64,000 nt of DNA from a virus (IMGVR_UViG_3300030380_006185:1-64000), one strand, 5' to 3'; shown: positions 1 to 63,820, counted from the first letter of the stretch. Numbers and translations: made by a program. Notes: generated by a model not told the origin, from the sequence alone.

Positions 1-3000
1 CTGTTGCAGATGAGCTTCCTGTATCAGCACTTCCTGTATCAGCACTTCCTGTATCAGCACTTCCTGTATCAGCACTTCCTGTATCAGCACTTCCTGAATC
101 TGGAGCTGGTGCAGTAGATGATCTTTGTTCAGATGATCCACTTCCACTACCGTACGCTATTTCATCAGAATGTTTTACAGCATAGATAACATGAGAATCG
201 CTTACATTACCAGTATACAGTAATTTTACAGCTCCTACAGCTACACCTTCTCCAGGTAAGCTATCTAAGTCAGTGTAAGCTACAGCCTCTTGCCAGTCTA
301 CCCCTTCAGTAAGAAGTTGACCATTTAAAAAGACTTGTACTGTACCTTGTTTAAATCCAGTTAAACAAGCTTGAGAATATAAACCTATTAGATCACCATT
401 ACCATTAGCTACTGTATTTACAGAGATTGATTGTAAATGGTTATCTTCTAGTCTATCCAAGTGGTTACTTACTTCACTAAATGAATCTAAAGCTGTTACA
501 TCTGTGTTAGAGATTATATCAGTGATTTTACCATCTAATTCAGCATCAGCAGCAGCAAATTCTGAACGGATAGCAGCTCTATCAGCTGTAGCAGCAGCAT
601 TAGCAGCAAGATCAGCAGCAGCAAATTCTGAACGAACCGCATCTCTATCAACTTTAGCTGATTGGAATGCAGTATCAGCATCAGCTTCATTTTGATTAAC
701 GTCAGCTTGTAATGCAGCGATTACATTATCATGAACAACTTTTTCATTTTCTTGCTTTAATTCTTGTGCATCTAGTGCAGCTTGAATAGCAGCTTCAGCA
801 GCTAATGCTCTAGTTTCTTCAGCAGAGATTGCAGCATCAGCGTCACTTTCGTTTTTATCAACGTCAGCTTGTAATGCAGCGATTGCAGCATCAGCATCAG
901 CTTCATTTTGATCAACGTCAGCTTGTAATGCAGCGATTGCAGCATCAGCATCACTTTCGTTTTGATCAACGTCAGCTTGGACAGCAGCTACAGCAGCATT
1001 GTTAGACAATACATAAGCAGCAAATGCATCATCATTCTCAGTATCAACAGAGTTGATTAAAGTAACGATTTCAGCAAAGCTATCTTTGTCAGCATCAGAA
1101 GCGTCTAAAATTGCATCAACTCTTGCTTCTTCAGTTGCCATTCTTGCAGCAAAAGATGAAGAGTTAGCAGTATCAGCAGCAGCGAATTCTGAACGGATTG
1201 CAGCTCTATCAGTAGTAGCTGAAACAAAATCAGCGTCTGTAGCAGCAATTTCAGCAGCTAATGCAGCATCGTTAGATGTTTCATAAGCAGCTAAATCACT
1301 AGCAACATTTGCTGTTTCAGTAGCAGCAGTTGAAGCATTAAAAGCCATTGTAGACTCAATAGATTGAGAAAGTGCAGTTCTTGCAGCAGTAGCTGAAGCA
1401 AAATCAGCGTCTGTAGCAGCAACTTCAGCAGCAAGTGCAGCGTCATTAGAAACTTTATAAGCATCTAAATCAGATTGAAGTGCTGTATCAGCAGCAGCAA
1501 ATTCTGAACGAATCGCAGCTCTATCAGTATCAGCATTAGATTTATCAGAAGCTTGTTTAGCAACTTGAGCAGCTAATGCAGCATCGTTAGATGTTTCATA
1601 AGAAGCTAAATCACTAGCAACTAAAGCAGTTGCAGCATCTTGTTCGGATTGTTTAGTATCAACTAAAGCTTTTGCATCTACAATTGCTTGGTCAGCAGCA
1701 GCTTTTGCAGCAGCGATTTCAGAATCTCTTGTAGATTCGTCAGCAGCCTGTTTAGCAACTTGAGCAGCTAATGCAGCATCGTTAGATGTTTCATAAGCAG
1801 CTAAATCACTAGCAACTTGAGAAGTTGCAGCATCTTGTTCAGCTTGTTTAGTATCAACTAATGCTTTAGCGTCAACAATCGCTTGATCAGCAGCAGCTTT
1901 AGCAGTAGCAATTGCAGTATCTCTTGCAGATTCATCAGCAGCTTGTTTAGCAACTTGAGCAGCTAATGCAGCATCGTTAGAAACTTCGTAAGCAGCAGAT
2001 TTAGATACTTCTGTTGCAAGTGCAGCATCGTTAGATAATACATAAGAAGCAAATGCATTGTCGTTCTCAGTATCAACAGCGTTGATTAATGTTACGATTT
2101 CAGCAAAGCTATCTTTATCAGCATCAGAGGCAGCTAAGATTGCGTCAACTCTTGCTTCTTCAGTTGCCATTCTTGTAGCAACAGAAGATGAAAGTGCGCT
2201 ATCAGCAGCAGCGAATTCTGAACGAATTGCAGCTCTATCATTAGTAGCTGAAGTGAAATCAGCATCTGTAGATGCAATTTCAGCAGCTAATGCAGCATCA
2301 TTAGAAACTTCGTAAGCAGCTAAATCACTAGCAACTAAAGCAGTTGCAGCATCTTGTTCAGCTTGCTTGGTGTCAACTAATGCTTTAGCATCAACGATAG
2401 CTTGATCAGCAGCAGCTTTTGCAGCAGCAATTTCAGAATCTCTTGTAGATTCATCAGAAGCTTGTTTAGCAACTTGTGCAGCAAGTGCAGCATCGTTAGA
2501 TGTTTCATAAGCAGCTAAATCACTAGCAACATTTGCTGTTGCAGTATCTTGTGCTGTTTGTTTAGCATCAACCAGCGCTTTTGCGTCAATAATTGCTTGG
2601 TCAGCAGCAGCTTTTGCAGCAGCAATTTCAGAATCTCTTGTAGATTCGTCAGCAGCTTGTTTAGCGACTTGTGCAGCTAAGTTATTTGTTAAAATTGTAT
2701 CAGCAGCTTCATAAGCAACTTTTGCAGCATCATCAGCAGCAATTCTTGCAGCAGTTTCAGCAGCATCATCAGCAGCTTGTTTAGCAACTTGAGCAGCTAA
2801 TGCAGCATCATTTGATAATACATAAGAAGCAAATGCAGCATCGTTTTCAGTATCAACAGCGTTGATTAATGTTACGATTTCAGCGAATGAATCTTTATCA
2901 GCAATTGAAGCACTTAAAATTGCATCAACTCTTGCTTCTTCAGTTGCCATCCTTGCTCCAAATGAGCTAGATAGTGCTGTATCAGCAGCAGCGAATTCAT

Positions 3001-4276
3001 TTCTAATTGCAGTTCTGTCAGTTGTAGCTAAAACAAAATCAGCATCTGTAGCAGCGATTTCAGCAGCTAATGCAGCATCGTTAGAAACTTCGTAAGCAGC
3101 TAAATCACTAGCAACATTTGCTGTTGCAGTATCTTGTGCTGTTTGTTTAGCATCAACTAATGCTTTAGCATCAACGATAGCTTGATCAGCAGCAGCTTTT
3201 GCAGCAGCAATTTCAGAATCTCTTGTAGATTCGTTAGATGCCATTTCAGTTCTAATTAATGCTCTGTCAGTTGTAGCAGCAGCATCATCAGCAACTTGTT
3301 TAGCTTCTTGAGTATCTAATGCAGATTGAATACCAGCTTCAGCAGCTAATGCTCTAGTTTCTTCAGCAGCGATAGCAGCATCAGCATCAACTTCGTTTTG
3401 ATCAACATCAGCTTGAAGTGCAGCAATAGCAGCATCAGCATCAGCTTCATTACCATCTACATCAGCTTGAAGTGCAGCAATAGCAGCATCAGCATCAGCT
3501 TCGTTTTGATTAACATCAGATTGTAATGCAGCAACAGCAGCATCGTTAGATAATACGTAAGCACCAAATACATTATCATTTTCTGTATCAACAGAATTGA
3601 TTAATGTTACGATCTCAGCAAAGCTATCTTTATCAGCATCAGCAGCTAATAATACAGCGTCCATTCTAGCTTCATCAGCCGCTAATCTAGTAGCAACAGA
3701 AGATGAAAGTGCGCTATCAGCAGCAGCAAATTCTGAACGAATCGCAGTTCTATCAGTATCAGCAGCAACCTTTTCAGATTCTTGCTTGGCTTCTTGTACA
3801 TCTAATGCAGATTGAATTGCAGCTTCAGCAGCTTCAGCTCTTGCTTTCTCAGTTGCATCAGCAGCAGCAAATTCTGAACGGATTAATGCTCTATCAGAAT
3901 CAGCAGCAACCTTTTCAGATTCTTGCTTGGCTTCTTGAGTATCTAAATCCGCTTGAATAGCAGCATCAGCAGCTTCATAAGCAACCTTTGTAGCATCATC
4001 AGCAGCTTTAAATTCTGAACGGATAGCAGCTCTATCAGTGTCAGCAGCAACCTTTTCAGATTCTTGCTTAGCTTCTTGAGTATCCAATGCAGATTGAAGA
4101 CCAGCTTCGGCAGCTTCAGCTCTTGATTTTTCAGTAGCATCAGCAGTACTTAAGTTAGCCAAATCATCTACTAATCCAGGTAAGTCATTTTTTACAATAC
4201 CTGAAGGTTCAACGATTGTGGCGTTGTTTAGTATTTTATCGGATTGTTTATCCAATACTATTTTTGTATTTGCCAT
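1..4276 (-). CDS. Giant Ala-rich coiled-coil fibre/whisker-like virion protein (at least 1425 aa, 3'-partial; absent from ORF track)
   Basis: ATG at 4276 (MANTKIVLDKQSDKILNNATIVEPSG...); the same frame reads sensibly at the window's left edge (...APDSGSADTGSADT...SSSAT); internal repeats such as RIDAILxASDADKDSFAEIVTLINxVDTEND; a VQVFLNGQLLTEGVDW domain after the coil. Confidence 0.85.
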   Translation of the reverse strand, partial: MANTKIVLDKQSDKILNNATIVEPSGIVKNDLPGLVDDLANLSTADATEKSRAEAAEAGLQSALDTQEAKQESEKVAADTDRAAIRSEFKAADDATKVAYEAADAAIQADLDTQEAKQESEKVAADSDRALIRSEFAAADATEKARAEAAEAAIQSALDVQEAKQESEKVAADTDRTAIRSEFAAADSALSSSVATRLAADEARMDAVLLAADADKDSFAEIVTLINSVDTENDNVFGAYVLSNDAAVAALQSDVNQNEADADAAIAALQADVDGNEADADAAIAALQADVDQNEVDADAAIAAEETRALAAEAGIQSALDTQEAKQVADDAAATTDRALIRTEMASNESTRDSEIAAAKAAADQAIVDAKALVDAKQTAQDTATANVASDLAAYEVSNDAALAAEIAATDADFVLATTDRTAIRNEFAAADTALSSSFGARMATEEARVDAILSASIADKDSFAEIVTLINAVDTENDAAFASYVLSNDAALAAQVAKQAADDAAETAARIAADDAAKVAYEAADTILTNNLAAQVAKQAADESTRDSEIAAAKAAADQAIIDAKALVDAKQTAQDTATANVASDLAAYETSNDAALAAQVAKQASDESTRDSEIAAAKAAADQAIVDAKALVDTKQAEQDAATALVASDLAAYEVSNDAALAAEIASTDADFTSATNDRAAIRSEFAAADSALSSSVATRMATEEARVDAILAASDADKDSFAEIVTLINAVDTENDNAFASYVLSNDAALATEVSKSAAYEVSNDAALAAQVAKQAADESARDTAIATAKAAADQAIVDAKALVDTKQAEQDAATSQVASDLAAYETSNDAALAAQVAKQAADESTRDSEIAAAKAAADQAIVDAKALVDTKQSEQDAATALVASDLASYETSNDAALAAQVAKQASDKSNADTDRAAIRSEFAAADTALQSDLDAYKVSNDAALAAEVAATDADFASATAARTALSQSIESTMAFNASTAATETANVASDLAAYETSNDAALAAEIAATDADFVSATTDRAAIRSEFAAADTANSSSFAARMATEEARVDAILDASDADKDSFAEIVTLINSVDTENDDAFAAYVLSNNAAVAAVQADVDQNESDADAAIAALQADVDQNEADADAAIAALQADVDKNESDADAAISAEETRALAAEAAIQAALDAQELKQENEKVVHDNVIAALQADVNQNEADADTAFQSAKVDRDAVRSEFAAADLAANAAATADRAAIRSEFAAADAELDGKITDIISNTDVTALDSFSEVSNHLDRLEDNHLQSISVNTVANGNGDLIGLYSQACLTGFKQGTVQVFLNGQLLTEGVDWQEAVAYTDLDSLPGEGVAVGAVKLLYTGNVSDSHVIYAVKHSDEIAYGSGSGSSEQRSSTAPAPDSGSADTGSADTGSADTGSADTGSADTGSSSAT
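15..96. repeat. 15-bp tandem repeat (cttcctgtatcagca x5 plus partial) encoding (GSADT)n linker
   Basis: Perfect copies start at 15, 30, 45, 60 and 75. Confidence 0.95.
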
Positions 4277-57779: not shown

Positions 57780-58058
57780 GATGAAAAAAAATTTTTATGA
57801 AAAAAAGATTTGGGATACGTGGGAAAACAAAAAATTACCCATTTTGAAAATTATGTTTACATCGTGGGGATATTCGTATATACTAGTCGATATTGGTAGA
57901 TCGTTTACGATTTATGAGTGTGTCTAATCCGGCTTTTTCCACCACATACCCGCGTATTGACAACCGCGCGCGTGGTACGGTATTACCATAGTATTACCAT
58001 ATATATACCATATATATACCGCCGCACGCGGTACGGCATAAAGGGGTACTACCCCCTT
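57780..58058. other. GC-rich non-coding island with 11-bp-period direct repeats and hairpins
   Basis: taccata x3 plus tacc at 11-nt spacing, flanked by cgcgtg/cacgcg and cggta/taccg; hairpin aaggggt/accccctt. Confidence 0.6.
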
Positions 58059-58191
58059 AACACCAATCTATATTCAAACTAAATTTTAAAAACCTAAATA
58101 CAACAAATTGCCATTTTAAATCTACTATTATTGTTGGTATTATGTACCAACTATCGTCTATATCCCAATGCTTTTTTACCTTTACTTTCAT
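58057..58191 (-). CDS. Micro-ORF, 44 aa
   Basis: MKVKVKKHWDIDDSWYIIPTII...; TAA-T-ATG coupling. Confidence 0.55.
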   Translation of the reverse strand: MKVKVKKHWDIDDSWYIIPTIIVDLKWQFVVFRFLKFSLNIDWC

Positions 58192-58192
58192 A

Positions 58193-58261
58193 TTACTTAT
58201 TTAAATTTTTAATCATATAACCTAATATTAAACTAAAATATTTATATTTATCCTTTTCCAT
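58193..58261 (-). CDS. Micro-ORF, 22 aa
   Basis: MEKDKYKYFSLILGYMIKNLNK; TAA-T-ATG coupling. Confidence 0.45.
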   Translation of the reverse strand: MEKDKYKYFSLILGYMIKNLNK

Positions 58262-58262
58262 A

Positions 58263-58352
58263 TTATTTATTTAAATTTTTAAAAAAAATATAACCAAGTA
58301 TACAACTAAAACACATTATAAACACAACCCATATTGCTATACCAACTACCAT
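58263..58352 (-). CDS. Micro-ORF, 29 aa membrane peptide
   Basis: MVVGIAIWVVFIMCFSCILGYIFFKNLNK; TAA-T-ATG coupling. Confidence 0.5.
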   Translation of the reverse strand: MVVGIAIWVVFIMCFSCILGYIFFKNLNK

Positions 58353-58353
58353 A

Positions 58354-58635
58354 TTACTTAGTTTTAGTTATCCACTTATTATTTACATACTTACCAATTA
58401 CCAAACTACCATCAGCCATTAATCTAACTGTAAGTGTGTACACTCTTTTCTTACCTGTATATTTACTTACATCATTATACCACACCTTAAATGTATCACA
58501 GTTCCAATTGTTCCATACTTGAGCAATATCAAGATTTGGGTATCTAGACAGAACAAACTTTTTGACATCTACATTATTAACCATTACTTTTTCCCTTAAC
58601 ACCATTACATTTTCCATAAATCTCATTTTAATCAT
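58354..58635 (-). CDS. Early hypothetical protein (likely start 58626 or 58617)
   Basis: Degenerate early promoter at 58632-58673. Confidence 0.6.
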   Translation of the reverse strand: MIKMRFMENVMVLREKVMVNNVDVKKFVLSRYPNLDIAQVWNNWNCDTFKVWYNDVSKYTGKKRVYTLTVRLMADGSLVIGKYVNNKWITKTK

Positions 58636-58673
58636 ACCACAATATACGAACCAGCACTCGCTAACCCTCTACC
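58632..58673 (-). promoter_or_regulatory. Early promoter (variant)
   Basis: GGT-N23-GTATATTGTGGTAT. Confidence 0.55.
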
Positions 58674-58904
58674 CTTGATATCTTGGCTGAGCATCTGGTT
58701 ACGTAGATCGTAATTTGGATCGTATCCGCACGCTTTGAGTACCATGTACAATGTTTTCCAACGTGTTTCTAGGTGGCGATAATGCTTGCTATCTGTACCA
58801 TATAACTCTTTCCACTCATCTTGTGCTACCCATGATTGCGCCTCTAATTTTTGCATGATTGCTATTGTACCTCTCTTTGTCATATACTTTTGTTTTTTGG
58901 TCAC
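58632..58904 (-). CDS. Early hypothetical protein (likely ATG start 58883)
   Basis: ORF immediately downstream of a structured RNA. Confidence 0.55.
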   Translation of the reverse strand: MTKKQKYMTKRGTIAIMQKLEAQSWVAQDEWKELYGTDSKHYRHLETRWKTLYMVLKACGYDPNYDLRNQMLSQDIKGRGLASAGSYIVV

Positions 58905-59081
58905 CTAAAGCCCTACACATGGGTTGGTGTAGAGCCGTTGGCGATTGTATAATTAAAAAAGATATGGGTTTTATTTTGATGGCTAAAACCCTTAAACCAA
59001 ATATCTATACTCACCTCGCTGCTCCCCTCTATTTTAAGCAACCCAACCATTTCTTGGTCATTCCTCTCGCCGAGGTGAGTA
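58901..59081 (-). ncRNA. Candidate structured RNA (RNA1) containing the antisense of the early-gene leader
   Basis: 11-bp perfect stem 59008-59018/59071-59081, 8+6-bp stem, 9-bp stem, 7-nt loop pairing; CAUAUCUUUUUUAAUUAUAC segment. Confidence 0.6.
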
Positions 59082-59092
59082 ATACCAATTTC

Positions 59093-59296
59093 TTATTTAA
59101 ACCTACCGTACTGTTTTTTCATACCAAGTACTTCTTGTATCTCATCACTACTAATACCACCCTCACTTATAGGTGCATCCAATAGTATCTTCATCATTTG
59201 CATTACGATTGTATACTCACCAGTTTTATTAGCATCATCCAACAATCCTAGTTTCATCTCTTTACTCAATCCCAACAACATTTCTTTTTCAAACAT
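59093..59296 (-). CDS. Early hypothetical protein
   Basis: Own promoter copy. Confidence 0.7.
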   Translation of the reverse strand: MFEKEMLLGLSKEMKLGLLDDANKTGEYTIVMQMMKILLDAPISEGGISSDEIQEVLGMKKQYGRFK

Positions 59297-59310
59297 ATTT
59301 CTTTTTTTAA

Positions 59311-59352
59311 TTATACTACAATATACGAACTATCTATCTAAACTGGTATTCA
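59311..59352 (-). promoter_or_regulatory. Early promoter
   Basis: TGA-N23-GTATATTGTAGTATAA. Confidence 0.75.
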
Positions 59353-59649
59353 TTAAATAGGTAAATCATACTCATCAAACCTACCCTCCTCTCTACCAAA
59401 CCCAAAATTACCTTTCTCCTCAACCTCAACATCTTCTTCATAGTCATCATCAAGTACATCAGTACCAACAATAATTTCTTCACCTGTAATAGGGTCTATT
59501 CCTCTTCTTTCAAGTTCTTTCGTTACTAACCAAAATAATTTCTCAAGTGTTGTTCCTCTTTCAGTACCCAACTCACAACTAATTTCTAAATTCAAATGAT
59601 CTAACTCATTTAACAAATCGTCATCACTATAACCACTAAAATCTTTCAT
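59353..59649 (-). CDS. Acidic early protein
   Basis: D/E-rich; own promoter copy. Confidence 0.7.
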   Translation of the reverse strand: MKDFSGYSDDDLLNELDHLNLEISCELGTERGTTLEKLFWLVTKELERRGIDPITGEEIIVGTDVLDDDYEEDVEVEEKGNFGFGREEGRFDEYDLPI

Positions 59650-59664
59650 ATTTACCCTTTAAAA

Positions 59665-59706
59665 TTATACTACAATATACAAACTACCTATTTAAACTGG
59701 TATTCC
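59665..59706 (-). promoter_or_regulatory. Early promoter
   Basis: GGA-N23-GTATATTGTAGTATAA. Confidence 0.8.
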
Positions 59707-59710
59707 CTAT

Positions 59711-59935
59711 TTATCTATGAAACTTTTTAAACCGAAGTTCTGTTTTATTAATAGTACTGTCTTCTATTTTCTTATCTATAGCTCTGACAGTTCGTCCTAT
59801 TTGTATTATTTCATCCCACTGATCCTCTTGGACTTTAAAAATAATGTTGTGGTATTTTTTTTGTTCTTGTCTTATATAAACTAACAGATGGCAATTCACT
59901 ATGAATGACATAAAAACTATTGTTATTGTTATCAT
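59711..59935 (-). CDS. Early single-TM protein
   Basis: Hydrophobic N-terminus. Confidence 0.55.
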   Translation of the reverse strand: MITITIVFMSFIVNCHLLVYIRQEQKKYHNIIFKVQEDQWDEIIQIGRTVRAIDKKIEDSTINKTELRFKKFHR

Positions 59936-59953
59936 CTTTTTTCTTTTTTTTAT

Positions 59954-60121
59954 TTATACTTTATTTATTAAATCACTTACTTCTTTTCTAAATCCTTCAT
60001 CCTCCAAATACTTCTTACCATTTGTATACCACCATTCCTGAGATACATAACCAATAATATCATCTACAAATACTAAATTGTAGGACTTATAATAATAACC
60101 TCTTAACATTGTTTCTAACAT
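59954..60121 (-). CDS. Early hypothetical protein, 55 aa (not in ORF track)
   Basis: MLETMLRGYYYKSYNLVFVDD...; directly after promoter copy. Confidence 0.65.
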   Translation of the reverse strand: MLETMLRGYYYKSYNLVFVDDIIGYVSQEWWYTNGKKYLEDEGFRKEVSDLINKV

Positions 60122-60136
60122 ACTATCTTTTTTTAA

Positions 60137-60178
60137 TTATACTACAATATACAAACTTAGTATTAATAAGGTTAGTCC
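60137..60178 (-). promoter_or_regulatory. Early promoter
   Basis: GGA-N23-GTATATTGTAGTATAA. Confidence 0.8.
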
Positions 60179-60235
60179 TTTTACAAACAAAAAACCATTT
60201 TTCATTATTGAACTAACCTTACTATCTAACTTAAT

Positions 60236-60565
60236 TTATTTATTTACAACTTCATTACTATCTTCAACCTTTACTTTTTTAGGTCGTCCTAATTTTAAAG
60301 TTCCATTTTTTCTTTTTTCTTCTAATTCCTTTAACCTAATTTGTCTTACACTTAAAGGATTCACTTTTCTACCTCTTAACTCAATTCCATTTTCTCTATT
60401 AAACTTTTTTCTTTCAAGTTCCTTTTGTCTAACACTATTTTCATTAACAGGTCGTCCTCTTTTCAACTCACCATTTTTTCTTTTTTCTTCCAATTCTCTC
60501 AACCTAATTTGTCTTTTACTATTCACATTAACAGGTCGTCCTAATTTTACACTTACTTTTTTCAT
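60236..60565 (-). CDS. Early DNA-binding protein with repeated AT-hook-like motifs
   Basis: KLGRP/KRGRP/LRGRK/KLGRP separated by VNxxSxRQ-helix repeats. Confidence 0.7.
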   Translation of the reverse strand: MKKVSVKLGRPVNVNSKRQIRLRELEEKRKNGELKRGRPVNENSVRQKELERKKFNRENGIELRGRKVNPLSVRQIRLKELEEKRKNGTLKLGRPKKVKVEDSNEVVNK

Positions 60566-60588
60566 AACTTTTTTTTATTTATTTTTAA

Positions 60589-60630
60589 TTATACTATAAT
60601 ATACAAATTATTTATTAATTTTAAAATTCC
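60589..60630 (-). promoter_or_regulatory. Early promoter
   Basis: GGA-N23-GTATATTATAGTATAA. Confidence 0.8.
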
Positions 60631-60638
60631 ATAATGAT

Positions 60639-60824
60639 TTAAAAATCATCATGTTTCCCACTCCATTTACCAACGTATTTATCATTTTTATCATACACTT
60701 CCAATGTATAAATTTTATCTCCCCAAACATGCATTGGAGGACGTGCACTAACGATTATCCCATAAAAACCTTCCTCAGCTGGGAATCTTAATCCCGCGTC
60801 CTTCTCTAATTTAATTTTATTCAT
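60639..60824 (-). CDS. Early hypothetical protein
   Basis: Own promoter copy. Confidence 0.65.
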   Translation of the reverse strand: MNKIKLEKDAGLRFPAEEGFYGIIVSARPPMHVWGDKIYTLEVYDKNDKYVGKWSGKHDDF

Positions 60825-60839
60825 TTTATCATTTTTTAA

Positions 60840-60881
60840 TTATACTATAATATACGAATTATTTATTTATTTGCTTCGTCC
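60840..60881 (-). promoter_or_regulatory. Early promoter
   Basis: GGA-N23-GTATATTATAGTATAA. Confidence 0.8.
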
Positions 60882-61045
60882 TGCATTATAACATAATCTA
60901 AAGTTTTATTTATTTGCCCTATATAGTGAAATATATCATCAATTAAATGTATTCCGTGATGATGATCCTCTACCAATTCGTTTAATTTAACTTTAAATTC
61001 TTTTAACTCTTTAATATCGTCCGTAACAAACCTTAATTTATTCAT
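60863..61045 (-). CDS. Early hypothetical protein
   Basis: Own promoter copy. Confidence 0.65.
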   Translation of the reverse strand: MNKLRFVTDDIKELKEFKVKLNELVEDHHHGIHLIDDIFHYIGQINKTLDYVIMQDEANK

Positions 61046-61060
61046 ATGTTTTTTTTTTAA

Positions 61061-61102
61061 TTATACTATAATATACAAAATAAATATTAATTAAAACATT
61101 CC
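61061..61102 (-). promoter_or_regulatory. Early promoter
   Basis: GGA-N23-GTATATTATAGTATAA. Confidence 0.8.
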
Positions 61103-61564
61103 TTACCCACAAAAAGCTCTTTTATCTTTATTTAACATTTCTTTTACCTCTTCATTACTTATTTCTCTAACCAACTCACCACTTTTCCAATCAAACCCCC
61201 ATATTCTCTTACTACTACATCCTGCATTAGTGAATACACAAGGAACTGCCATTACTTTAATACTTTTATTTTCTTTATCCACTACCAATTTATAATATCC
61301 ATAATCACCTCCATCACCATTATCTTCAATTTCAAACCCATCACAATCACTAAACCACTCATCAAAATATATATCATCAAAATCACCCTCATCCTCACTA
61401 TACACTCTATATTCTAAATCATCCTCACCCTTAATATCCAAATAATCTTCTTCACCATAATCATAACCACCACTTCCTAATAATGGTTCTCCATAATATA
61501 TTACCCTTAATTTTTTTAATCTTTCAACAATACCCAATTTTAAATATTCTTTTTTAAATTTCAT
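61103..61564 (-). CDS. Acidic early protein
   Basis: D/E/Y/G-rich; own promoter copy. Confidence 0.7.
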   Translation of the reverse strand: MKFKKEYLKLGIVERLKKLRVIYYGEPLLGSGGYDYGEEDYLDIKGEDDLEYRVYSEDEGDFDDIYFDEWFSDCDGFEIEDNGDGGDYGYYKLVVDKENKSIKVMAVPCVFTNAGCSSKRIWGFDWKSGELVREISNEEVKEMLNKDKRAFCG

Positions 61565-61576
61565 ATCTCTTTTTAA

Positions 61577-61618
61577 TTATAATATAATATACAAATTACT
61601 TATTAATTATCTTATTCC
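61577..61618 (-). promoter_or_regulatory. Early promoter
   Basis: GGA-N23-GTATATTATATTATAA. Confidence 0.75.
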
Positions 61619-61797
61619 TCAAAACAACTTCTATCAACAAAAACACTATAATCATCACCAATACTACCACATAAATCAATTAAAAAACTTCTTAATTTAA
61701 CATCACTTTTTAAAATTAACCTTTCTTCTAGTTCACCACTATTATATAATTCTAACAAGTCATTATAAATTTTATTTACCTTTTCTTTATCTAACAT
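61612..61797 (-). CDS. Early hypothetical protein (no A/P/Q/H/T residues)
   Basis: Own promoter copy. Confidence 0.65.
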   Translation of the reverse strand: MLDKEKVNKIYNDLLELYNSGELEERLILKSDVKLRSFLIDLCGSIGDDYSVFVDRSCFEE

Positions 61798-61810
61798 ATT
61801 ACCTTTTTAA

Positions 61811-61852
61811 TTATACTATAATATACAAAAAACCCCCTATATAAGGGGGTCC
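61811..61852 (-). promoter_or_regulatory. Early promoter with terminator hairpin in its spacer
   Basis: GGA-N23-GTATATTATAGTATAA; ACCCCCT-TATAT-AGGGGGT plus T run at 61827-61850. Confidence 0.8.
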
Positions 61853-61876
61853 TGTACAATATTTATTTTATTTTAT

Positions 61877-62461
61877 TTAAACAACTCTTTTTAAATCTTC
61901 AATTTCACCAGTTAATACCCACTTCCTAGTTACACTACAATATTTACCTACTTTTCTAAATCCTCCATCTTCCTCATTTAATACTCTATTCATATTAACT
62001 CCTTTCCATTTAATTTTAATAATTAAAGTAGTTTCCTTTTCTAACATTTCATTTTTATAATCAAACCAATTCTTACCCCAATTTTCTTCATATTTTAAAA
62101 AGAAATTCCTATACCAATACCAACTATAATCACTTAATTTACAAATTTCAACTTCATATTTACCAAAATCCTTACTATTTAAATAATCTTTTACTTTATT
62201 AAATTTTTCATTATCACTAATTAATCTATTTTTATCACTTAAACTATTATATACATCATCATTATAATTACTAATCCATCCTTTTAACCTTCTACACTCA
62301 CCTCCTTTAACACTATATAAATCATTATAACTAACATAAAAACTTAAATTTAAATCTTTAAATATTTTATTTAATAATTCATTTTTAAAATCATTACTTT
62401 CTTTTAATAAACCTTTCCTAATACTTTTTAACTCTTTTACTTTACTACTTTCCTTAAACAT
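61877..62461 (-). CDS. Early hypothetical protein (no A/P/Q/H residues)
   Basis: 194-aa ORF; own promoter copy; 5 C in 585 coding nt. Confidence 0.7.
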   Translation of the reverse strand: MFKESSKVKELKSIRKGLLKESNDFKNELLNKIFKDLNLSFYVSYNDLYSVKGGECRRLKGWISNYNDDVYNSLSDKNRLISDNEKFNKVKDYLNSKDFGKYEVEICKLSDYSWYWYRNFFLKYEENWGKNWFDYKNEMLEKETTLIIKIKWKGVNMNRVLNEEDGGFRKVGKYCSVTRKWVLTGEIEDLKRVV

Positions 62462-62476
62462 ATTTTATCTTTTTAA

Positions 62477-62518
62477 TTATACTACAATATACAAATTTTT
62501 ATTAAATAACAGAAGTCC
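62477..62518 (-). promoter_or_regulatory. Early promoter
   Basis: GGA-N23-GTATATTGTAGTATAA; hairpin gaagtcct/aggacttc (62512-62532) overlaps the GGA box. Confidence 0.8.
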
Positions 62519-62554
62519 TTTAACAGGACTTCCATTACTATATATAATTAAAAA

Positions 62555-62968
62555 TTAACTCTTAAATTCTTTACTTACAAAATCCTTAACCATATTATTA
62601 ATTAATTCTTTAATATCAATTCCTTTATCAATACCATTTAATATTAATTCTTTTTCAATATTTCTTTTACAATTATAATCAACACTTCCTACAATATTAA
62701 ACAAATTTTTATTTTCCTTATAACCATATCTTCCTACACTATTATAAGTAATTCTAATATTAAATTCATCATTAACCTTATTAACAAAATCATTTAATTC
62801 ATTTTCTAATTTTTCCTTTTTTAATTCTACTTCTCTTAATTCCTCTAATAAACTAAAATCAACATTTTCATTAACAATTTTTAAACATTTATCATTAACT
62901 TCCTCTACAACTTTACTATAAACTTCATTACTAACAACATCTAACTCAATTCTACTTAATTTACCCAT
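62555..62968 (-). CDS. Early hypothetical protein (single cytosine in the whole CDS)
   Basis: 137-aa ORF; only + strand G is at 62748. Confidence 0.7.
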   Translation of the reverse strand: MGKLSRIELDVVSNEVYSKVVEEVNDKCLKIVNENVDFSLLEELREVELKKEKLENELNDFVNKVNDEFNIRITYNSVGRYGYKENKNLFNIVGSVDYNCKRNIEKELILNGIDKGIDIKELINNMVKDFVSKEFKS

Positions 62969-63014
62969 AATTTACCTTTTTTAACTTTTAATTTTTAATA
63001 ATTTAACTTTTTAA

Positions 63015-63056
63015 ATATAATATAATATATAAAATTTCTATTAAAATAAATATTCC
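63015..63056 (-). promoter_or_regulatory. Early promoter (variant)
   Basis: GGA-N23-ATATATTATATTATA. Confidence 0.65.
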
Positions 63057-63057
63057 T

Positions 63058-63411
63058 TTATTTTATCTCTTCAACAAATTCTTTAAAACCTTCCCAATAA
63101 AAATTACTATATTCCATTCCTATAGTACTATAATATAAATCATCTTCACTAGTATTCATATCTAATACTTCTTCCATACTAATTTTATTTTTTCCTTTAA
63201 TACACATTAATTCAGGTTCAATCATTTCACCATCTTCATCAGATTTAAATTCATTCATAATATGATCATTCATTACTTCATAAACATCTCCTTTATAAAA
63301 TACATCACTAAAACAATCTTTCCATTCATCACCTACAAACATTTCTTCATCAATTCTGTAATCAACAATTCCTGTACATACATCTTCAATAACTCTAAAT
63401 TTTCTTCCCAT
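63058..63411 (-). CDS. Acidic early protein
   Basis: Own promoter copy. Confidence 0.7.
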   Translation of the reverse strand: MGRKFRVIEDVCTGIVDYRIDEEMFVGDEWKDCFSDVFYKGDVYEVMNDHIMNEFKSDEDGEMIEPELMCIKGKNKISMEEVLDMNTSEDDLYYSTIGMEYSNFYWEGFKEFVEEIK

Positions 63412-63429
63412 TTTATTTTATCTTTTTAA

Positions 63430-63471
63430 TTATAATACAATATACAAATTTCTAGTAAATTAAACTATTCC
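63430..63471 (-). promoter_or_regulatory. Early promoter
   Basis: GGA-N23-GTATATTGTATTATAA. Confidence 0.75.
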
Positions 63472-63650
63472 TTTAATTTTTTAACCAATTTATTAAACAT
63501 TAATTCCAATTCTTTACTTTCATCCCTATTTAATATTACATTTTCAAATAAGTTAATAGGATTTATTTCTACCACTGTGTTGTTTTCTAGTATAACATCT
63601 GTAGTGTAAATATCTCTATTGTCAGTACCTTTTATTTCAACTCTTTTCAT
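63465..63650 (-). CDS. Early hypothetical protein
   Basis: Own promoter copy. Confidence 0.65.
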   Translation of the reverse strand: MKRVEIKGTDNRDIYTTDVILENNTVVEINPINLFENVILNRDESKELELMFNKLVKKLKE

Positions 63651-63662
63651 AATATCTTTTTA

Positions 63663-63704
63663 ATATACTATAATATACGAATAATCTTTTTATAATAAAC
63701 TTCC
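63663..63704 (-). promoter_or_regulatory. Early promoter
   Basis: GGA-N23-GTATATTATAGTATAT. Confidence 0.8.
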
Positions 63705-63820
63705 TGGGTAATATAGGTTTGTTTGGTTGGGTACAAACCTGAAAACCATCCCGTTACCTCTTGCATTACTCAGTAACCCGCTAGCAAACATTGTAATCCC
63801 CGTTCTAGTAGGGTAATAAA
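63705..63820 (-). ncRNA. Candidate structured RNA (RNA2)
   Basis: GC-elevated intergenic stretch; perfect hairpin AGGUUUGU-ACCCAACCAA-ACAAACCU; GUUAC/GUAAC stem. Confidence 0.4.

Follow-up and report, generated by a model that had tools for sequence, protein, structure and literature searches.

Selection keeps a block of early genes nearly free of cytosine in a marine myophage predicted to replace its guanine

The 64,000-nucleotide (nt) stretch analyzed here (the window; IMGVR_UViG_3300030380_006185:1-64000) comprises bases 1–64000 of a virus record of 156,273 bp, whose genes are almost all encoded on the minus strand. Toward its end, five adjacent minus-strand genes between 61103 and 63411 together contain 25 cytosines (C) among 2001 coding bases, counted on the coding strand; in typical genes of this phage, C makes up 11–16%. 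All features given by coordinates below lie on the minus strand unless stated otherwise. Read in the direction of the genes, the block starts with a promoter-like early repeat of the TTTGTATATTGTATTATAATTAAAAAG type (63422–63448; two mismatches to the consensus), which stands 5′ of a C-poor gene for a protein of 117 amino acids (aa; 63058–63411; C 8/354; C among the pyrimidines at third codon positions, C3/Y3, 1/60). Its orthologues in the related contigs L015 and L042 (73–90% identity) are just as C-poor. A degenerate copy of the repeat (63007–63033; three mismatches) precedes the 137-aa gene (62555–62968), in which a single C is left in 414 nt (C3/Y3 0/73) and whose orthologues in four relatives, one of them at merely 35% identity, have none (0/414). 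The terminator-like hairpin that comes next (62511–62533) contains four of the block's 11 intergenic C (62512, 62515, 62526, and 62527); it was not scored by a simple terminator scan. Behind a repeat with one mismatch (62469–62495) lies the 194-aa gene (61877–62461; C 5/585; C3/Y3 1/97), followed by an intrinsic terminator with a 10-bp stem and a T run (61829–61853), which carries six intergenic C and is kept in the relatives L014 and L015. The exact consensus of the repeat (61803–61829; no mismatch) precedes the 61-aa gene (61612–61797; C 2/186; C3/Y3 1/34), which has orthologues at 85–97% identity in L014, L015, and L042. The last member, behind another repeat with one mismatch (61569–61595), is a C-poor gene for a very acidic protein of 153 aa (61103–61564; C 9/462; C3/Y3 1/74) that is found neither in L014 nor in L015. 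An outlying early gene of 109 aa (60236–60565; C 16/330) avoids silent C as well (C3/Y3 0/34).

On the plus strand, the block appears as runs without guanine (G), the longest of which span 409 nt (62103–62511) and 376 nt (62749–63124); further runs of 244, 236, and 220 nt adjoin, all five lying between 61249 and 63124. At the genome G frequency of 0.129, the chance of a 409-nt G-free run is ∼3e-25 per position. The longest run without any other letter is at most 73 nt across the whole 156-kb genome, and avoidance of another letter was seen nowhere in it. GC skew reaches −0.92 at 62–63 kb, compared with about −0.15 elsewhere. The two longest runs and all five coding counts, which the initial annotation had obtained by eye, were reproduced exactly. 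When synonymous, non-synonymous, and intergenic sites were inspected separately, as had been proposed there, C proved to be purged at all three codon positions (0.8, 2.4, and 0.6% at positions 1, 2, and 3, versus 12.6, 20.1, and 7.5% in the rest of the genome). Wherever the code offers a synonym without C, a C-containing codon is chosen in 1.3% of cases in the block and in 23% in the rest of the genome. Most of the 25 coding C are second positions of threonine, alanine, and proline codons, and the 11 intergenic ones are almost all within the two hairpins 3′ of stop codons. The loss extends to every C-containing dinucleotide, all being at 0.06–0.17 of the genome level (AC 0.14, GC 0.07, TC 0.07, and CC 0.06). 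In exchange, G is more frequent, and T rises from 0.29 to 0.33–0.39 in the block genes and from 42 to 51% at third codon positions; the purine share grows from 58% to some 64%, and C is much rarer than G. A general, moderate purine excess with both pyrimidines lowered is thus not what the block displays.

The composition of the encoded proteins is affected accordingly. Residues whose codons need C (alanine, proline, glutamine, histidine, and threonine) amount to 2.4% in the five proteins and to 19.9% in the rest of the genome, and cysteine, tryptophan, tyrosine, and valine are enriched. Three of the proteins (61, 137, and 194 aa) lack alanine, proline, glutamine, and histidine altogether, as had been noted from the sequence initially. 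Because avoidable C is purged from the message strand, the proteins are limited to about 15 amino acids. An assembly error as the source of the tract was ruled out by the occurrence of the same C-free genes in other IMG/VR contigs, and C-free block DNA is present in marine sequencing runs of 11 studies. Together, the families of the 194-aa and 137-aa proteins account for about 190 protein clusters nearly without alanine, proline, glutamine, histidine, and threonine. In the 194-aa family (102 clusters, 65–100% identity), these five residues sum up to 1.85%, nearly all of it threonine, with alanine at 0.02%; in the 137-aa family, 77 of the 85 clusters contain none of the five. Searching the block by blastn against 50,697 phage records gave no match, and comparing ten early proteins with Pfam and PHROGs revealed no family. 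A structural model of the 194-aa protein (predicted local distance difference test, pLDDT, 75) found no PDB match at an E-value of 0.001 or better; the model of the 137-aa protein was of poor quality (pLDDT 61). An Rfam scan of the window gave no known RNA.

The initial annotation had described an effect that peaks at 62–63 kb and fades on both sides. At silent sites, no such fading is seen: summed over the five genes, C3/(C3+T3) is 4/338 (genome-wide, 0.153), whereas flanking genes behind near-identical promoters show 5/27, 4/30, and 5/25. The edges of the block are sharp at silent sites, without a gradual fade. Across the wider early region, silent C is normal (7.3 versus 7.5% at position 3); the wider skew over 58–68 kb therefore reflects amino acid make-up, namely, fewer alanine, proline, and serine residues. 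A gradient tied to promoter strength was considered and rejected, as near-identical promoters precede genes with normal silent C. A depletion specific for C after a pyrimidine in the flanking early genes, as Rho sites or an APOBEC-like activity might leave, was likewise dismissed, being explained by amino acid content at normal silent C. As a separate observation, ordinary early non-core genes are C-poor just at their 5′ end (4.6% in the first 30 nt, versus 11.9% in other genes).

Each block gene is preceded by the 27-nt repeat TTTGTATATTATAGTATAATTAAAAAG, of which there are 25 copies, all on the gene strand and mostly at 58.6–70 kb; stem-loops follow just two of the five genes. Relatives differ by whole cassettes, with presence and absence seen in L014 and L015, and over 58000–63700, cassettes are joined differently in contigs from other marine samples, the joints always falling at promoter repeats (e.g., 60547>62463 and 58053>61564). 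The block is thus shown to consist of five promoter-driven, swappable early-gene cassettes, and comparison of the contigs shows that their shuffling is ongoing. This arrangement resembles the promoter-early stem-loop (PeSL) cassettes described for RB49 and phi1, two T4-type phages (Arbiol et al, 2010; PMC2839356), where small ORFans stand behind repeated strong early promoters, some genes have 3′ stem-loops, and shuffling makes gene content differ between relatives, the junctions lying at the repeats. However, no nucleotide exclusion has been reported for PeSL cassettes (PMC2839356), and the promoter of the block, unlike theirs, is no plain sigma-70 type. Within the lineage, the repeat, with copies seen over 58624–63681 of the window and 63990–89577 of G000, has two forms: 15 C-free genes are preceded by TTTG and nine by TTCG, compared with five and 27, respectively, of the normal genes. 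The TTTG form, commoner before C-free genes, is without the one template-strand G of the repeat. Contigs from RNA libraries (X15 and X16) span the early region and reach little depth over parts of the structural genes next to it; such contigs cannot prove transcription or rank genes. Two further elements were observed in this region. A second conserved box, (A/G)AGGAAT(A), is located 20–30 nt 5′ of each repeat (58600–70200); as it often overlaps the preceding stop codon, many early proteins end in one or two glutamate residues. A C-rich, conserved non-coding stretch with hairpins, negative in Rfam, lies between two early cassettes (63700–63820) and is found in L015, too.

Relatives were found via the 194-aa protein and via the promoter repeat, and orthologues from four contigs were compared pairwise. 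At two-fold silent sites of the block genes, T/C differences numbered 1 in 757, compared with 36 in 827 for A/G, whereas ordinary early genes of the same contigs, serving as the control, had 47 in 604 (T/C) and 45 in 702 (A/G). T-to-C changes are about 35–60 times rarer in the block than in the control genes. The pooled synonymous divergence (dS) of the block is 0.064, or 0.132 when changes involving C are left out of the site count, close to the 0.153 of the control. With the same changes left out, the ratio of non-synonymous to synonymous divergence (dN/dS) is 0.51 in the block and 0.26 in the control, from which it follows that the block proteins are constrained but fast-evolving. The absence of C outlasts the similarity of the proteins: in a distant relative (G002), orthologues at 35 and 41% identity contain 0/414 and 1/417 C, and unrelated genes occupying the same slots in other relatives are C-free as well (e.g., 0/291). 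The few C present in the block are conserved and not turning over. As a raised rate of C-to-T change would leave the input of T-to-C changes intact, new C must be removed by selection. Purifying selection is thus shown to strip every avoidable C from the message strand, promoters and leaders included, so that C is confined to terminator hairpins and to the few threonine, alanine, and proline codons that are required; beyond the genes themselves, C persists after stop codons, in terminators.

The portal, major capsid, and baseplate proteins are T4-like, and the phage is a marine myophage. Its closest isolate is Flavobacterium phage immuto, with which it shares synteny, the confinement of genes to one strand, and a major capsid protein at 60% identity. 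At the other end of the window, an open reading frame (ORF) of at least 1425 aa (2–4276) runs off the contig start; at 40% G+C in a 30% genome, with alanine-rich repeats (AAAD..AIRSEFAAAD and QADVDQNEADADAAIAALQ), a globular C-terminus, and a (GSADT)n tail, it resembles a fiber and has no Pfam match. One run of genes encodes QueC, QueD, QueE, FolE2, a phosphoribosyltransferase, a MazG-like protein, and PolB (Pfam matches: QueC, 7e-36; PTPS, 2e-14; GCHY-1, 9e-71; radical SAM, weak), and the genes for preQ0 synthesis (FolE, QueD, QueE, and QueC) are 66–75% identical to the immuto proteins. A tblastn search with the DpdA3 of immuto located a homologue at G000 117064–117831 (36% identity, E 9e-50), and the reciprocal search with this DpdA3 recovered immuto, CP220, and phiST; the Pfam TGT model did not detect it. 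DpdA3 defines the class of complete modification, and replacement of G has been shown by mass spectrometry for immuto, CP220, and phiST (PMC10516641). In immuto, deoxyguanosine is gone, replaced by fdPreQ1, and the DNA resists enzymes with G in their sites (PMC10516641). Judged from its genes, the phage described here probably replaces all G by a 7-substituted 7-deazaguanine, too. No tblastn match to QueF or DpdN was obtained in G000, nor in the near-complete relatives G007 and G008, and the base is therefore probably preQ0 or ADG and not fdPreQ1, hence different from that of immuto. As no phage RNA polymerase was found among nine large proteins scanned, nor in the immuto annotation, the messages of the block are probably made by the host polymerase. 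A DpdA3 profile built from a four-member alignment retrieved at least 558 IMG/VR contigs encoding relatives of the protein, with 58–95% identity to the present one among the best 80. Phages with this type of modification are therefore frequent in environmental data.

The letter missing from the template is exactly the one predicted to be modified. This suggests that the template strand of the cassettes avoids the phage's own modified G, an explanation that we favor tentatively and whose chances we put clearly short of even. The strand read by RNA polymerase would then carry no G, modified bases would sit on the non-template strand only, and the cassettes could be copied from incoming DNA regardless of any event at modified G in a template. 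The handicap avoided might be that the host polymerase reads modified G poorly; alternatively, a host defense might mark, cut out, or nick at modified G, in which case the template of the cassettes would stay clean and unbroken. The products would be first-wave take-over or counter-defense proteins, needed before the remaining genome is expressed normally. Bacterial RNA polymerases are inhibited in vitro more strongly by 7-substituted 7-deazaguanines than by other bases bearing the same groups, whereas unsubstituted 7-deazaguanine is harmless (PMC4838386). Phage phiST, which has DpdA3 and DNA with the unsubstituted base, has no C-free genes, which fits avoidance of modified G since its base is harmless in vitro. 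The excess of the TTTG promoter form at C-free genes and the tolerance of C past stop codons are circumstantial evidence in the same direction.

In further circumstantial support of the link to modified G, a C-free gene also occurs in immuto, the cultured relative. Gene gp143 of immuto 2-6A (L017 18330–18686, corresponding to NC_055915 68330–68686) has C 5/357 and C3 0/61, encodes an acidic protein of 118 aa, and is followed by a hairpin; gp134 is a weaker C-free early gene. Neither is homologous to genes of the block, and one or two such genes in immuto compare with a block of five here. The immuto-type phages share DpdA3, FolE, QueD, QueE, and QueC with this phage, and genes lacking a base are not mentioned in their description (PMC10516641).

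Substantial evidence weighs against a simple form of this avoidance of modified G. The modification of this phage is predicted from genes, not measured. Inhibition by modified G in vitro is exerted at initiation, not elongation (PMC4838386); in the promoters here, the non-template strand retains G, and one in three C-free genes still has the template G in its promoter. Most early genes behind near-identical promoters use C normally. To our knowledge, there is no defense aimed at 7-deazaguanine DNA. Among other carriers of DpdA3, no C-free genes were found in CP220 (all G as dADG), MA9V-3, and BSP7; the one G-free run of CP220 (111 nt) is AT-rich non-coding DNA, and a 1.7-kb GA-free stretch in the same phage (L052, 171.5–173.1 kb) turned out to be spurious, namely, an array of ∼16 copies of a 97-bp tandem repeat. 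In G007 (174 kb) and G008 (158 kb), which encode DpdA3 together with QueC, QueD, and QueE, there is no run of 150 nt or more and just two tiny borderline ORFs; essentially without C-free genes, they demonstrate that G-free templates are not needed to run a DpdA3 phage. Scanning 20 DpdA3 contigs for runs of at least 150 nt gave a single match, at a contig end, and no motif-level avoidance was seen in the partly modified phages CAjan and 9g. As related DpdA3 phages and most early genes of this phage do without C avoidance, the trait is accessory. The link between C-free genes and modified G is circumstantial, and if there is one, an attack or handicap at modified G imposed by some hosts only would be its more likely form. 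What the data call for is a cost per message C or per template G, effective up to the stop codon, in a subset of accessory early cassettes. Explanations acting on RNA or on nucleoside triphosphates (NTPs) account for the accessory pattern just as well; under them, C-free genes and G modification would occur together by coincidence.

One such explanation holds that the messages are independent of cytidine triphosphate (CTP): they could be transcribed to the stop codon without C, would thereby escape CTP shortage or the ddhCTP made by viperin, and their products would lift the block. A cost for each C would explain its near-total removal, the tolerance of C past the stop codon, and the restriction of the rule to part of the accessory, fast-evolving early genes; presence in some relatives and absence in others is what would be expected of a response to host defense. 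Prokaryotic viperins reportedly occur in marine Bacteroidota and make ddhCTP. Their products, however, have reportedly been shown to hit the polymerase of T7 and not the host enzyme, and the lack of a recognizable phage RNA polymerase weakens the ddhCTP version; with the coincidence that it requires, independence of CTP appears rather unlikely. An RNA-directed factor of host or phage, such as a ribonuclease, acting at C or at short motifs containing it would equally impose a cost per C and agree with the accessory nature of the trait, and it is consistent with C surviving nowhere but in a few codons and in the double-stranded stems of terminators. Engineered messages lacking ACA do escape MazF. 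No enzyme of this kind was identified in our analysis, though; toxin ribonucleases usually act once the host has been shut off, at a stage when their targets would be the middle and late messages, which contain C, and the association with G modification would again be fortuitous. Escape from such a factor is therefore decidedly unlikely. Extreme avoidance of Rho, which loads on C-rich, G-poor naked RNA, would let C-less, G-rich messages escape early termination, in line with the elevated purines and with C far below G. Dierksheide et al (2026; PMC13323073) showed that avoidance of Rho drives a purine bias in genes and raises a barrier against genes of foreign origin, including those of phages. 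As in that bias, selection on sense-strand nucleotides overrides codon choice, but the bias is a mild, genome-wide shift (54% purine), whereas in the block, one letter is nearly gone from five genes, amino acid content is rewritten, and the effect is confined to five or six genes. Because Rho depends on many C spread over more than 150 nt, little would be gained by losing the final C in 414 nt; T, a second feature of Rho sites (PMC13323073), rises rather than falls; and the purge of AC and GC is nearly as severe as that of TC and CC. The near-absence of alanine from the 194-aa family and the neighboring early genes that disobey the rule argue in the same direction and leave avoidance of Rho improbable.

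The initial annotation had also proposed three processes acting on DNA. Strong C-to-T deamination, be it of the displaced strand of heavily transcribed DNA or, as proposed there, of a strand near an origin or genome end, would agree with the increase in third-position T and with the enrichment of cysteine, tryptophan, tyrosine, and valine, as paths from C to T predict. It should leave normal T-to-C input, which is contradicted by the single T/C difference in the block as opposed to 47/604 in the controls, and A/G differences at the same class of sites (36/827) are not suppressed in parallel. The few C are conserved, next-door genes with the same promoter are normal, G rises as well, amino acid choice is overridden, and orthologues at 35% identity are still C-free. 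The substitution spectrum among relatives therefore does not fit neutral C-to-T pressure, and deamination, with next to no chance of being the cause, is rejected. A purge of all restriction sites containing G or C from first-entering DNA had been suggested, too; indeed, no palindrome with G or C is possible on a strand without C. Isolated C, however, would not need to go, and the loss hits all C dinucleotides and not recognition motifs alone; in the cultured relative, the DNA is already resistant to enzymes that recognize sites with G (PMC10516641), and neighboring early genes are unpurged. Such a purge is very unlikely. Escape from modifiers of single-stranded DNA directed at G or C is possible.

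A wider reading is that swappable first-wave genes are written in a three-letter code so that no nucleotide-specific block, be it a modified base, host attack on it, or a poisoned or missing NTP, can stop their expression; we give this wider statement an even chance of being true. Messages that can be made, or that survive, when one nucleotide or one motif is a liability are also obtained with synthetic cassettes lacking G or C for in vitro transcription and with ACA-less, MazF-proof messages, but these are engineered, whereas the block consists of natural protein-coding genes kept by selection. No description of cytosine-free or C-less phage genes was found in the full-text literature, and as far as this search shows, C-free early-gene cassettes maintained by selection are undescribed in print.

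Natural genes nearly without one letter, encoding proteins without five amino acids, point to a selective force that reads single nucleotides and overrides protein composition. They also illustrate that amino acid alphabets of 15 letters can yield working, evolving proteins. With gp143 of immuto, a cultured model is at hand. If modified guanine is the cause, the block would be the first sign of a transcriptional cost of complete DNA modification, paid by the rewriting of genes. A cause acting on C in RNA or on CTP would instead point to a host defense, or a phage shut-off, as yet unknown in marine Flavobacteriia. Should the three-letter code serve expression under any nucleotide-specific block, it would represent a general, undescribed layer of phage–host conflict that acts on single letters of the message.

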